This document shows positions 2,079 through 50,883 of a DNA stretch of 64,000 nt, in pieces (the first letter of the stretch is position 1; every line of letters starts with the position of its first letter). The notes beneath the pieces are model-generated. The model was not told the DNA's origin. It did no database searches and worked only from the letters and a program-made list of their open reading frames with translations. Location of the stretch: the IMG/VR virus record IMGVR_UViG_3300024346_000003. One strand, 5' to 3'. This DNA comes from a virus. Lineage: Duplodnaviria; Caudoviricetes. A program made the position numbers and the translations under genes.

Positions 2079-3886
2079 TAATAGTCCATTTTAGGTTTTG
2101 GTGCATGTGCTGGCTCAGCTTCCCAAATTCTTTTTCTTCTTGGTGAAGGTTGTGCTGGTTTTGTTTCTGGAATTACCACAGGTTCTTTAACTGGGTTATT
2201 CAATGTAATAGAATCTAACATATCTTGCATTTCGTTTAATTTTTCAATTATAACATCGTTATTTGCAAATATACTATTTTTTTTCAAATTATCCAAAGAT
2301 TCACTTATTTTAACACATTTATCTTTACCATTTTCAGTACCAGCGTACTTATAACCTTTCCAACATGCTTTACCATCAACACCTTTTATTTTATCTTCAC
2401 CAACTATTTTAGATACTGGTGTTCTAGACCACATTTTACATGACCAATATTTAGGTGTAGTTCTATCTTTTGCTTGAGCACATTTGTGTCTAGCTCTGAA
2501 TGATTTTCTTCTTTTTGGGTCATCTCTTTTAATTTCCATATTTGGGTCACCAAAATTAACTTTAACCACATTACCTTTTTTATTTTTAACGTAAACTTTA
2601 AATTTCTTAACATCACCCTTTGTCGGTTTACCTAATGTAACTTTTCTACCTTGGTATTCAGCTTCATTAATCCCATTCCCAACAAATAATTGCGCAATAT
2701 CACTTTCTGGCGATTCAACTGAACCATGATTATCTTCATATCCAGCTTCAGTATCACCGTCATAACCAAGTTGACCAGTTAAAAAATGATAAACTTCTTC
2801 AATATCATCTTTTGAAGTTGCTGCTAGATTTGAAATCCATTCACCATGGTTTAAAATCTCATTATCAACCATAAACACATCCATATTTAATATTTCATGT
2901 GTTGCATGTTTTATCGTTTTCAAATTTTGAAATAACATATAATTATTAGATTCAGACTCTTCAGTCATTCTTTCTTGACCTTCTAAATAATGGTAAATGT
3001 GCTCAATATCATGAGTTGCTGTTGCAACATGGTCTAAAGCCCAACCATGACCATTATCTAATAAAGCACTAACTTCATTCATATCCATACTCAATAATTC
3101 ACAAGCATCTTCATATATTGAATAGATATCATTAAAAAACATTCCATTTTTTAATTCTTCACCACCTTGATTATCGTTATTTTCATGTACTTCAAAATCA
3201 TCACCAAATGCGACAACATTATCACTTAATAAATCATCAGACTCCCACATTTGATTTTCAGCACCTGGTGCAAATCTAGCATCATTTGCAAAATATGATT
3301 TGTCAGCATTACCAGGTTGAAAACCTAAATCACCAGCTTCATCTAAAGGCTCTTCAGTTTCAGAATCAACATCTACTTCATCATCACCCATATTTGCTTC
3401 TTCATCATCACCAGTATCAACATTAACATCAACATTAACATCTTTACCTTCATCACCAGAAGATTTAATTTTTTTGATTATATCTTTTTGGTCTTCTTCA
3501 TCCATTTCAGCAGTATGAGTCGCTGAAATTACAGAATTAATTGCAAATTTTTCTAAATCAAAATCAGGTTGACCTTTATCTTCACTATATTTTCTAAGTG
3601 TAGTACCTAATTTACCAGCAAGTTGCTGTATATATTTTTCTGGGTCCTCAGTTTCATCAGCTTCAATACCAGCATCGAAAGGTGTATCATCAAATGGTTT
3701 ATCATCACCAGGTGCAGCTTCAGGTACCTCAGCATCCAAACCCATATCAGCTTCCTCACCACCAGTTACAGGAGGTGTAGAAACGTCCAAAGCTGGCGTA
3801 CTAGGTGCAGCCAGCTTTAGTTTATATTTTACTTCTTCTTCTAGATTATACCCTTCCTCTTCATCAGCGAAAAGACCAGTAGACAT
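2078..3886 (-). CDS. modular acidic protein, probable C-terminal part of a -1 frameshift fusion with 3907-4692
   Basis: 602-aa ORF; frame stays open upstream to the A10 run at 3913-3922; acidic linker, internal duplicated helical module, basic Cys module, Pro-rich tail. Confidence 0.8.
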   Translation of the reverse strand: MSTGLFADEEEGYNLEEEVKYKLKLAAPSTPALDVSTPPVTGGEEADMGLDAEVPEAAPGDDKPFDDTPFDAGIEADETEDPEKYIQQLAGKLGTTLRKYSEDKGQPDFDLEKFAINSVISATHTAEMDEEDQKDIIKKIKSSGDEGKDVNVDVNVDTGDDEEANMGDDEVDVDSETEEPLDEAGDLGFQPGNADKSYFANDARFAPGAENQMWESDDLLSDNVVAFGDDFEVHENNDNQGGEELKNGMFFNDIYSIYEDACELLSMDMNEVSALLDNGHGWALDHVATATHDIEHIYHYLEGQERMTEESESNNYMLFQNLKTIKHATHEILNMDVFMVDNEILNHGEWISNLAATSKDDIEEVYHFLTGQLGYDGDTEAGYEDNHGSVESPESDIAQLFVGNGINEAEYQGRKVTLGKPTKGDVKKFKVYVKNKKGNVVKVNFGDPNMEIKRDDPKRRKSFRARHKCAQAKDRTTPKYWSCKMWSRTPVSKIVGEDKIKGVDGKACWKGYKYAGTENGKDKCVKISESLDNLKKNSIFANNDVIIEKLNEMQDMLDSITLNNPVKEPVVIPETKPAQPSPRRKRIWEAEPAHAPKPKMDY

Positions 3887-3906
3887 CCCATCTACTTTAG
3901 TTTCAA

Positions 3907-4692
3907 TTAAGCTTTTTTTTTTAAAGTATTTAACAATGCTTCTTTTTCAGATTCAGTTAATGAATTTAAAATACCACTTACTTTATCAGAAGTATCTTCA
4001 CCAATAATTGAATCCATTCTAGCCATTGCAGTTTCAATACTAAAACCTTTTTTAGATTCAGGTATATTTATTTCTTTTGGTGGGTTAGGTAGTTGATTAG
4101 GGTCATCTTCATTTCCCATAGTGTAATCAACATCATCTAACATTTCATCGATAGCCATTTCATTTTCAGATAATTTAACAGCTTCAAATTCATCATCAGC
4201 ATCTTTGTTAGCAAGATTATCACCAAATTGACCTTCTTCCTTACCTTCTTTAGAATCGTAAGATAATTTTTCACCAGATTTATCTAAAATATCTTTAGAT
4301 GCATCATTTTCAGCTAACAAATTGTCATCTACAAATGCATTGTAGCTACTAATTTTACCATGAGCTTCATTTAAACTCATTAATTTTAAATTCAAATGTT
4401 TAATAGCTTTTGCGTATGATGGGTATACTTCAGATGTCTTATTCATCAAACCACCAATGTAATTGAAATCTTCAGTTACTAAATTTGATTGTTTGTCAGT
4501 TATTTTAATAAAATAATTGTGACCTTCTCTAACCACACCATAAACCTTACCATCAGGTCCTAATTTAGTCAATTCAACAACAGAATTTTTAACGTCTTCA
4601 TTTAATTGGGATTGACCCATTAATTCTCGCATTCTGTTAAGCTTATCATTACCTTTTAACCCTGTAGGTTTAACTATAAATGGATTCTTCAT
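3907..4692 (-). CDS. hypothetical protein ending in slippery LKKKA
   Basis: 261-aa ORF ending TTA AAA AAA AAA GCT TAA. Confidence 0.8.
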   Translation of the reverse strand: MKNPFIVKPTGLKGNDKLNRMRELMGQSQLNEDVKNSVVELTKLGPDGKVYGVVREGHNYFIKITDKQSNLVTEDFNYIGGLMNKTSEVYPSYAKAIKHLNLKLMSLNEAHGKISSYNAFVDDNLLAENDASKDILDKSGEKLSYDSKEGKEEGQFGDNLANKDADDEFEAVKLSENEMAIDEMLDDVDYTMGNEDDPNQLPNPPKEINIPESKKGFSIETAMARMDSIIGEDTSDKVSGILNSLTESEKEALLNTLKKKA

Positions 4693-4718
4693 TTTATATT
4701 GTTTTTTTAATTTTTTAT

Positions 4719-4976
4719 TTATAAGCTAATTGACCCCAAATATGGGCTACCATTAGTGACATCTTTATTAACACCAAGTACATAACAACCAACACCACCA
4801 GATAGTGTATTAATACCTATGAATATACTAGAACTACTACCCATATCAATGCTATACCCATTAACAGTAATGGTGCAACCTGTTGGTCCACCATATATTT
4901 CATTATAAGTGTATGCTGTTAAGTTAGCATCAGCAATTGTATGACATACTGCACTTACTTCATTTATTTTTGCCAT
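4719..4976 (-). CDS. small hypothetical protein
   Basis: 85-aa ORF downstream of two overlapping ATATTTAT motifs (4992-5005). Confidence 0.7.
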   Translation of the reverse strand: MAKINEVSAVCHTIADANLTAYTYNEIYGGPTGCTITVNGYSIDMGSSSSIFIGINTLSGGVGCYVLGVNKDVTNGSPYLGSISL

Positions 4977-5042
4977 AATATATTATAGTTTATAAATATA
5001 AATATGCGAAAAGTCTAAAAAAGATATTTTTATAAAATAAAA

Positions 5043-5066
5043 ATGGGATACTTTCATACCCCATTT
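5043..5066 (-). terminator. intrinsic terminator
   Basis: ATGGG(A)...CCCAT hairpin flanked by A/T tracts, directly after the thioesterase stop. Confidence 0.55.
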
Positions 5067-5071
5067 ATTTT

Positions 5072-5482
5072 TTATTTTGATTGACTGTCGGCAATTAACT
5101 TATTAATTCTATTTCTACCTTTCTCTCCGATTGGTATTGGATTACCTTCTTCATCAATTTGTACAAATTTTATATGTGTTTTTAAAACTAAAACTTGTTT
5201 CCCAGTATAAACATTATGGGCCCTGGCTTCCATGTATAACGTTACAGATGAATTACCAACTTGCGTTGGGTAACCATAGATTTTAAGTAACTGACTTTCT
5301 CTAGCTGGCTTCTCAAAGATACATTTATCAATTGATACAGTCACCATTCTAGGTGTATCACACAATTGCATTGAATATGCAGCAGCTGCCGCATCAATCC
5401 AAGCCAATAGTTTACCACCGAACAAATTACCATGGAAACCTAAGTCTGATTTTTTAATTGGGTGTTGGTTTAATTGTTCCAT
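5072..5482 (-). CDS. acyl-CoA thioesterase (hotdog fold, YciA-like)
   Basis: DLGFHGNLFGGKLLAWID motif and VTVSIDKCIF strand typical of hotdog thioesterases. Confidence 0.8.
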   Translation of the reverse strand: MEQLNQHPIKKSDLGFHGNLFGGKLLAWIDAAAAAYSMQLCDTPRMVTVSIDKCIFEKPARESQLLKIYGYPTQVGNSSVTLYMEARAHNVYTGKQVLVLKTHIKFVQIDEEGNPIPIGEKGRNRINKLIADSQSK

Positions 5483-5985
5483 TATTTTAACACTTGTTTT
5501 ATTTTATTAACATACCCCTCTAGTAATACAATCTTTCTTCTAATACTAATCTTATCCATATCCGCCAACATTCTTAAGTAATCGTTTAATTCATCTAATT
5601 GGTTAAATTCTTCTTTTAAAAGTTTAGATGCTTCACTTTCCATTAATTCTGCCATATTGAGTTTATCTGAAATGTTTAATTTTTTATCCCATTTTTCAAC
5701 AACTTCAGGAAATGTGTTTTTAATTGCGTTCTGTTGTCTGATTGGTATATCACTTTCCATTAATCCTGATAAATTTACCTTTTGTGTTTTGAAAGTCATA
5801 TCTTTATCTAACCCATCTAATAACCCAGTAGCTTCCCATTTTTTTATGGTTTTCTCTCGTTCCCATATTTTTATAAATGACTCAATTGTGGGTGTATATA
5901 TTCTTCTCTCCCACTCTTCAAAACTTATATGTGGTTCTTGATTTACAAATAAGTAATTTTCATATTGTGTTCTTAATGTTGCCAT
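5482..5985 (-). CDS. hypothetical protein with capsid-N-terminus-like segments
   Basis: 167-aa ORF; KKWEATGLLDGL and NMAELMESEASKLLKE segments. Confidence 0.65.
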   Translation of the reverse strand: MATLRTQYENYLFVNQEPHISFEEWERRIYTPTIESFIKIWEREKTIKKWEATGLLDGLDKDMTFKTQKVNLSGLMESDIPIRQQNAIKNTFPEVVEKWDKKLNISDKLNMAELMESEASKLLKEEFNQLDELNDYLRMLADMDKISIRRKIVLLEGYVNKIKQVLK

Positions 5986-50556: not shown

Positions 50557-50883
50557 TTATTTTTTACTTTTTTTTAAAATGGCCATGTATAACATAGTGA
50601 TATCTTCAATGGTCAATGAATCCTTCAACCTGTTCATTTTAAGTGAACATGCAACAACATTGTCATCCGTGTATCCCTTAGTATTGTCCAACCTGTCAAA
50701 CGTCAATTGATTGTCATCAAACTGAACCCTGTTTAAATTGGCACCACTGATATAACATTTTTTTGTTGATAACAATTGTCGGACCTTCTTAAGACTTAAG
50801 TCAAACTCAAGTTTTCTACTATCAGCTGATGTCTTAATTGAAATTAACTTCTTTGCCACTTCTAAATCTGTAACCCTTTCCAT
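50557..50883 (-). CDS. HNH-like nuclease-fold protein (degenerate)
   Basis: CYISG...LTFDRLDNTKGY..DNVVACS..MNRLK. Confidence 0.6.
   Translation of the reverse strand: MERVTDLEVAKKLISIKTSADSRKLEFDLSLKKVRQLLSTKKCYISGANLNRVQFDDNQLTFDRLDNTKGYTDDNVVACSLKMNRLKDSLTIEDITMLYMAILKKSKK

Follow-up and report, generated by a model that had tools for sequence, protein, structure and literature searches.

In Escherichia coli dnaX and in insertion sequence (IS) elements, -1 ribosomal frameshifting takes place on A AAA AAG, a site of 6-7 A's accompanied by an upstream Shine-Dalgarno-like element and a downstream stem-loop, and among phages, frameshifts are found in structural genes such as the lambda tail assembly chaperone G/GT, T7 10A/10B and the major head protein of phage A2. 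T4-like phages transcribe their late genes with the host core RNA polymerase. Here we analyze a 64,000-nt stretch of DNA (the window) from IMG/VR record IMGVR_UViG_3300024346_000003 (Duplodnaviria; Caudoviricetes), an uncultured large T4-like phage, in which a run of ten A's (A10) closes a 261-aa open reading frame (ORF-A) and is followed in the -1 frame by a 602-aa one (ORF-B). Such a run also bears on transcription, in that bacterial RNA polymerase slips efficiently in vivo on 9 A's or T's, with a slippage threshold of 9 and an RNA-DNA hybrid of 9-10 bp (PMC5009743). Transcriptional frameshifting has been shown experimentally at tssM1 of Citrobacter rodentium (A11) and tssM of Yersinia pseudotuberculosis, where both protein forms and their ratio (frameshift frequency ~20-25%) are required for function (PMC4256274). 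The tau and gamma products of Thermus thermophilus dnaX are attributed to slippage during transcription of a run of 9 (Larsen et al. 2000, as related in PMC5009743).

The tssM genes are the closest experimental parallel in layout: poly-A lies just before the stop of the upstream frame, the short form is read in the zero frame, and added A's yield a full-length fusion beside the truncated form. They differ in encoding a secretion-system membrane protein, in two bacterial species, whereas ours is a phage gene for which the evidence is comparative and comes from ~95 lineages. T. thermophilus dnaX shares a homopolymer of hybrid length, with mixed mRNAs and two products having a common N-terminus; its proteins are unrelated, and its long form is the zero-frame product while slippage gives the short one, the reverse of what we propose for the window and 95% of its relatives. 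The few relatives in which ORF-A and ORF-B are naturally fused do copy the dnaX layout, L187 for instance having an in-frame A10 and stops within three codons in both other frames. With E. coli dnaX and the IS elements the locus has in common a slippery heptamer of Lys codons, the -1 direction and two products, yet its run is always 9-12 long and no stimulator is conserved. The lambda, T7 and A2 cases are similar as late phage genes with a short major and a long minor product in a ratio set for assembly, but no sequence or fold relation to them was found, and the present genes lie upstream of terminase and have another type of slippery sequence. The kind of mechanism is already known; for the protein family and its recoding, no description was found in the literature searched.

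The A10 run and the expression of ORF-B

The recoding site and both ORFs are on the minus strand of the window (Table 1). ORF-A ends AAT ACT TTA AAA AAA AAA GCT TAA, so that in the zero frame the run is read (TT)A AAA AAA AAA and the protein C-terminus is LKKKA, with the stop (3909-3907) one codon past A10. After the run, the -1 frame continues free of stops as AGC TTA ATT GAA ACT AAA GTA GAT GGG ATG TCT (SLIETKVDGMS) into ORF-B, whose ATG is 23 nt past the first base of the ORF-A stop and 20 nt past the stop itself, hence in the -1 frame. Upstream of the run the -1 frame is open for 24 nt, from 3946. The ORF ends, the run and its -1 continuation are all as the initial annotation had described them. 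The predicted fusion has the junction ...LKKK-SLIETKVDG-MSTGLF... and 871 aa (260 + 9 + 602), close to the ~870 aa of that annotation, with an isoelectric point (pI) of 4.55 and a net charge of -77.

Table 1. Positions of the features discussed, in window coordinates
Feature	Position	Strand	Remarks
ORF-A	4692-3907	minus	261 aa (P0001); short product, zero frame
Overlap of the two frames	3946-3907	minus	40 nt, zero and -1 frames both open; holds the run and the ORF-A stop
Putative slip site	3922-3913	minus	A10 in mRNA sense; T10 on the plus strand
Trans-frame linker SLIETKVDG	3887-3913	minus	-1 frame, from the last A of the run; L-x-E (L-I-E) directly after the slip
ORF-B	3886-2078	minus	602 aa (P0002); extension in the -1 frame
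T4 late-promoter consensus, TATAAATA	4716-4723	minus	23 nt before the ORF-A ATG
85-aa ORF	4976-4719
Terminator-like hairpin	5066-5041	minus	within 4982-5066; followed by CATATTTATATTTATAAAC; ahead of the 85-aa ORF
Neighboring gene	5482-5985
Thymidylate synthase (thyA)	7443-6190	minus	417 aa
Three ORFs following ORF-B	2078-93
A8 run	1689-1696	minus	mRNA sense; 9 nt before the stop of ORF 2078-1680
A8 run	50568-50575	minus	mRNA sense; 11 nt before the stop of ORF 50883-50557

A run of nine or more A's is by itself not rare in the window, where 15 matches were counted against ~19 expected at 30% GC. The run at ORF-A is the only homopolymer of at least 9 within a long ORF in mRNA sense, the remainder being intergenic or in an 83-aa ORF that is likely spurious. 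Its significance comes from its conservation in relatives and not from mere occurrence. Two A8 runs, shorter than the slip site, are also found shortly before ORF stops (Table 1).

IMG/VR was scanned four times, with ORF-A, ORF-B and two fused relatives as queries, giving 228 loci; once identical junctions were removed, 101 distinct ones were left, with protein identities of ~35-80% to the window. Ninety-five of the 101 have ORF-A and ORF-B split, the latter in the -1 frame, with an A-run where the two overlap; five are fused into a single ORF (L169, L170, L187, L188 and L216). The -1 relation thus holds in 95 of the 96 split junctions. Run lengths in these 95 are A10 in 76, A9 in 13, A11 in 5 and A12 in 1, with none below 9. 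The split at the A-run is therefore kept in most of these junctions, and the single continuous ORF that the initial annotation would have taken as the sign of a homopolymer assembly error is confined to the five fused junctions. The lone exception among split junctions, L121 (~2929-2991), has A9 and ORF-B in the +1 frame, whereas in its sisters L113 and L122 the run is A10 and the frame -1; L121 could be an assembly error, or a variant requiring deletion of one A or insertion of two.

The offset has been retained through considerable change of the surrounding sequence. Overlaps in relatives range from 13 to 64 nt, all of them 1 mod 3 (save one of 65 nt), and zero-frame tails from 0 to 8 codons, which shows that many indels have occurred and that the -1 offset was nonetheless kept. 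In L023, a run of A12 is offset by one extra T downstream, restoring the -1 relation. In several relatives a T directly before the run makes, with its first two A's, a TAA that closes the -1 frame, which leaves only the run itself as the place of the shift.

The composition of the Lys codons gives a further indication. AAA makes up 79% of Lys codons in the relatives' ORFs, so about half of all KKK would be expected as pure A9; instead pure A9 encodes KKK at 94 of 94 junctions but at only 6 of 65 places elsewhere in the ORF-A and ORF-B homologues. Long A-runs appear thus to be avoided where slippage is harmful and fixed where it is used; on this comparison, selection acts on the homopolymer itself. 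The avoidance of pure A9 outside the slip site also suggests that long A-runs are costly in the hosts of these phages.

ORF-B depends on the slip site, because many relatives have no ATG for it and because its -1 peptide is conserved from the run onward. In 47 of 83 relatives, the first 90 nt past the run contain no ATG in frame with ORF-B. The start Met of the window's ORF-B sits in a conserved peptide, DGMSTGLF, but close relatives replace it: DGRTTGLF in L038, EKKSTGLF in L230 and PRDTTGLF in L065. The strong independent start that would have told against a fusion is thus not a conserved one. Upstream of this Met, the -1 frame is conserved as protein from its first codon after the run, as S-L-x-E-T-K (94 junctions), with S at position 0 in 57, L at position 1 in 65 and E at position 3 in 47 of the 94; after E the conserved peptide goes on T-K-Y-K-L-K. 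It is hard to reconcile these observations with two independent genes, in which ORF-B would be translated from its own ATG at 3886, possibly by coupling or re-initiation, and the run would be just the Lys-rich tail of ORF-A. That explanation would fit the short distance from the ORF-A stop to the ORF-B ATG in the window and the separate calls for ORF-A and ORF-B made by the gene callers of public databases. It leaves unexplained the -1 relation kept despite so many indels, the pure-A KKK at every junction and the existence of naturally fused forms, and we regard it as very improbable as a general account. Within the window's own clade, however, the Met of DGMSTGLF is conserved, and some independent initiation at 3886 may occur in the window phage itself.

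The fused forms were also seen among proteins. Scanning 1.8 billion representative proteins with ORF-A as the query yielded 810 cluster representatives at E<=1e-3, most of which end in ...KKK (...LKKK) plus 0-8 residues, while a minority are natural single-ORF fusions. Their junctions (P0110 ...SKKKSLSETKYKLK, P0096 ...TKKKSLIETKYKLK and P0086 ...LKKKDLTEAKYKLK) are exactly the product predicted for the split genes.

Since homopolymers are error-prone and hypermutable, the split could in principle arise at the DNA level, either as an artefact hiding a true A11 or as a phase-variation switch by replication slippage in which only A11 genomes make ORF-B; the related contigs L169 and L170 are indeed A11 and fused, and fused database proteins are mostly singletons. 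This has little to recommend it against the rest of the family. Dozens of assemblies made independently, on different samples, share the A10 layout, runs of 9-12 keep the -1 relation by compensating changes (as in L023), and ORF-B is intact and conserved in split genomes, which calls for its expression from them; we give such an origin almost no weight. For the window phage in particular, six more close relatives from independent Joint Genome Institute (JGI) metagenome assemblies all have A10 in the identical layout, so we conclude from these sequences that A10 does not come from an assembly error. When JGI metagenomes were scanned with the exact flanks, no run-length variants of the window phage turned up.

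Taken as comparative evidence, these data strongly support A10 as a programmed recoding site giving the ORF-A protein and the A-B fusion, the two products foreseen by the initial annotation. Against this stands the fact that the junction counts come from sequences related by descent and are not independent trials.

Slippage by RNA polymerase or by the ribosome

A single late transcript would thus serve for two proteins. Translation would mostly end at the TAA one codon after the run, giving the 261-aa ORF-A protein, while the equivalent of one extra A at the run would lead some molecules into the -1 frame and to the 871-aa fusion. In the main route we propose, realignment of the nascent A-tract with the template T-tract lets the host core RNA polymerase add one A, and ordinary translation of the A11 transcripts would give the fusion; the ribosome may contribute by -1 slippage on A AAA AAA. 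Which machine slips, and in what ratio the two products are made, is here inferred. Sequence alone cannot decide the machine, but it leans to RNA polymerase, because the run has a minimum of 9, all three phases are used and no stimulator is conserved. We put the probability that RNA-polymerase slippage is the main route at roughly 0.6.

Two features by which bacterial transcriptional slippage is recognized are present, namely an A/T homopolymer of at least 9 within a coding region and a conserved downstream ORF that can be reached by base insertion in the run (here one extra A). So is the in-frame X XXY YYZ heptamer looked for in ribosomal frameshifting, as A AAA AAA within TTA AAA AAA AAA. 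Across the 95 junctions, run length, with its minimum of 9 and mode of 10, corresponds to that of the 9-10 bp RNA-DNA hybrid; with respect to the zero frame, each of the three phases is represented (80, 9 and 6 junctions); and in no relative is there a bare 7-nt heptamer. The flanks of 94 junctions were barely more structured than shuffled sequences, and we found no conserved hairpin or pseudoknot 5-9 nt downstream of the run: mean z was -0.64 for the 60 nt downstream and -0.62 for the 50 nt upstream, with medians near -0.3 and z < -2 in 16-17% of junctions. The window has only a single stem, of 7 bp (z -1.2); its start, 16 nt past the run, is more distant than a classical stimulator would be.

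A classical programmed -1 ribosomal frameshift would yield the same 871-aa fusion from a faithful A10 mRNA, by slippage of tRNA-Lys in the P and A sites or by sliding of the ribosome. Several observations weigh on its side. The A AAA AAA heptamer is in frame in every relative, L023 has a dnaX-type A AAA AAG in frame, and the direction is -1 in 95 of 96. The bias in phase, 80 of 95 junctions reading xxA AAA AAA AAA followed by G, suits A AAA AAA, although it may merely be inherited. In E. coli, ribosomes are reported to slide on poly-A tracts and iterated AAA codons (PMC4363877), and certain phage frameshifts function without stimulators (PMC5009743). On the other hand, 7 bases suffice for the ribosome, yet none of the 95 relatives has fewer than 9 A's or a different heptamer; the run appears in three phases, and the stimulators that usually attend such a shift are not conserved. 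Moreover, 9-10 A's are expected to slip under a bacterial RNA polymerase anyway (PMC5009743). We therefore consider the ribosome rather unlikely as the main agent. Of the -1 frameshift proposed in the initial annotation, the recoding site stands, while the shift may well not be ribosomal, polymerase slippage fitting the data at least equally well.

Features of the proteins and a possible role in the head

At its N-terminus ORF-A has a basic alpha-beta-beta-beta-alpha domain (~15-111), which a disordered acidic linker joins to three helices at the C-terminus. In its AlphaFold model (mean predicted local distance difference test score, pLDDT, of 72) the domain of helix, three-stranded sheet and helix (15-111) is confident. 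ORF-B has a conserved N-module of helices at 82-143, a domain of His-rich helical repeats at 244-375 and, at 409-497, a small basic domain that contains Cys; there are also disordered acidic stretches, and the C-terminal tail is basic and rich in Pro. Its model (mean pLDDT 51) is mostly disordered, with a confident duplicated helical domain at 248-373. The product as a whole is acidic and mostly disordered.

Searches placed ORF-A in no family of Pfam or PHROGs, and tblastn of ORF-A against 50,697 phage records gave no match. An ESM Atlas search returned hypothetical viral clusters only, and no PDB sequence was matched at E below 0.4 in profile searches. With the ORF-A model, Foldseek found nothing significant (weak rows resembling double-stranded RNA-binding domains had E 0.1-1) and VIA-align reached Z 5 at most. 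The family is large, with the 810 cluster representatives for ORF-A and >6,000 proteins for ORF-B, and comes from uncultured phages only. The sole above-threshold family match in Pfam and PHROGs is that of ORF-B 407-486 to phrog_7595 (E 2.1e-12); below threshold in Pfam were DUF5754 (14.5 bits vs. a cut-off of 27.4) and DTX3L. Neither ORF matched the tail assembly chaperone families of Pfam or PHROG, nor do they lie between tail tube and tape-measure genes.

For the helical domain of ORF-B (244-375), DinB/YfiT-like chains were the top VIA-align result (Z 8.7, root-mean-square deviation 4.3, 128 aligned), a score below the tool's caution level for helical bundles, and made up most of the first 15 rows. 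His residues 280, 286, 299 and 367 are near-invariant, and the Pfam DinB profile did not match ORF-B. The modeled domain thus shows a borderline resemblance to the DinB/YfiT-like metal-binding four-helix bundles.

The small basic domain (409-497) has a pI of 10.3 and conserved Cys and His (...RRKSFRARHKC...YWSCKMW). By tblastn it also occurs stand-alone, as a gene of ~90 aa, in pelagiphages, roseophages, Flavobacterium phages and spindle-shaped viruses of Nitrosopumilaceae, an unusually wide viral host range as judged from these matches. In L165:5756-8848, L172:6065-8430 and L184:5753-8322, two ordinary genes take the place of ORF-B: one stops past the small basic Cys domain (...YWSCRLPRYAKKLGLSGGGTWW, then the stop), and the other has its own ATG (MKEFRNYMFFENL...) and contains the His-rich helical repeats and the basic C-terminal tail, a module order unlike that of the window. 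Recoding was considered at these divided genes and rejected, as their second part is an ORF by itself and begins with an ATG; we read them, from their sequences, as shuffling of modules within the ORF-B family. P0012 (an 18-member cluster) and P0014 combine ORF-A with the ORF-B N-module in one ORF that then ends ...HLSLKKKDK and ...HIHLKKN, respectively, endings that may reflect a relocated or second A-run site further downstream. A second slip site had been suspected from these endings and from frame changes inside ORF-B homologues; it is rejected here for the divided genes of L165, L172 and L184.

The suggestion of the initial annotation that these might be scaffold or head proteins was not borne out by any family, fold or annotated relative pointing to function. 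A different kind of hint comes from protease motifs. T4 gp21 cleaves its substrates after L/I-X-E (PMC9026906), and related giant-phage proteases likewise cut after Glu (PMC5694885). At 91 of 94 junctions, an [LIV]-x-E lies within 12 residues past the slip, against a background of 0.03-0.05 motifs per residue. L/I-x-E is also conserved in ORF-A at E32 (LNE 30-32, 87%), E109 (LNE 107-109, 99%) and E176 (85%), and in ORF-B at E183 (LDE|A 181-184, 98%) and E408 (INE|A 406-409, 100%), such motifs being near-invariant inside otherwise variable, disordered linkers. L/I-X-E at conserved positions is what a substrate of a T4-type prohead protease should have, though it is a weak sign, the motifs being short and the protein Glu-rich.

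We tentatively suggest that the protein is such a substrate, made in two forms and residing in the head, with its cargo cut off after assembly. The slip would dose a minority of ORF-A molecules with ORF-B cargo, to be cut at the L-x-E just past the junction. The position in relatives, three genes upstream of TerL (the large terminase subunit), also speaks for such a role. Two matters count against this: it draws on short motifs in a Glu-rich protein, and neither a fold match nor a homologue in cultured phages (tblastn, 50,697 records) was found. Extended to the family, and with similar reserve, the logic would be that of Gag and Gag-Pol: in a large clade of uncultured T4-like giant phages, polymerase slippage on A10 would carry ORF-B cargo into the capsid at a set dose, a scheme we consider rather unlikely. 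ORF-A would then be an abundant prohead-core or targeting protein, of which a fixed minority would carry the cargo (a DinB-like metal-binding module, the small basic Cys domain and the basic tail), and the prohead protease would free it at the L-x-E after the slip and at the inter-domain L/I-x-E|A sites. The likeness to Gag/Gag-Pol of retroviruses and Ty, and to the T4 internal proteins cut by gp21 (PMC9026906), is an analogy of logic only: recoding would attach cargo to a minority of an assembly protein, and the particle's protease would cut just past the junction. The T4 targeting peptides have 10-20 residues, as against a 260-residue protein here.

Gene neighborhood and implications

The gene order in relatives is thyA, a small ORF, ORF-A, ORF-B, three unknown ORFs and the large terminase subunit (TerL); the window has thyA and the same three ORFs at the positions given in Table 1. 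Its thymidylate synthase matches the Pfam profile in three stretches, which points to sizeable insertions relative to ordinary ThyA. A megablast of 12 kb against cultured phages gave no match, and the three genes downstream of ORF-B gave none or only unannotated megaphage records. ORF-A showed no similarity to the neighboring gene, and a terminator-like hairpin precedes the 85-aa ORF (Table 1).

The T4 late-promoter consensus TATAAATA ahead of ORF-A was considered as its promoter and rejected: it occurs 19 times in the window, the chance level at 30% GC, and lies upstream of ORF-A in only 6 of 96 relatives. A motif resembling ATATTTAT(A/T)AATAAA, which some half of the 96 relatives have 20-30 nt ahead of ORF-A (ATATTTA in 52), may instead be the late promoter of this phage group.

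With ~95 diverged lineages carrying A9-A12, this is among the better comparative cases for homopolymer slippage in bacterial viruses, and it includes the reciprocal layout, in which fused relatives keep the run and have stops in the other two frames. Gene callers have split the gene in every public assembly, leaving thousands of entries as two proteins; annotation of phage metagenomes should join ORFs across runs of A9 or longer if the -1 frame continues without a start codon. Rather than two separate proteins, the phage most likely makes a short protein and a long fusion. If the head-cargo reading were true, slippage on the run would provide large phages with a simple means of setting the copy number of a packaged protein.

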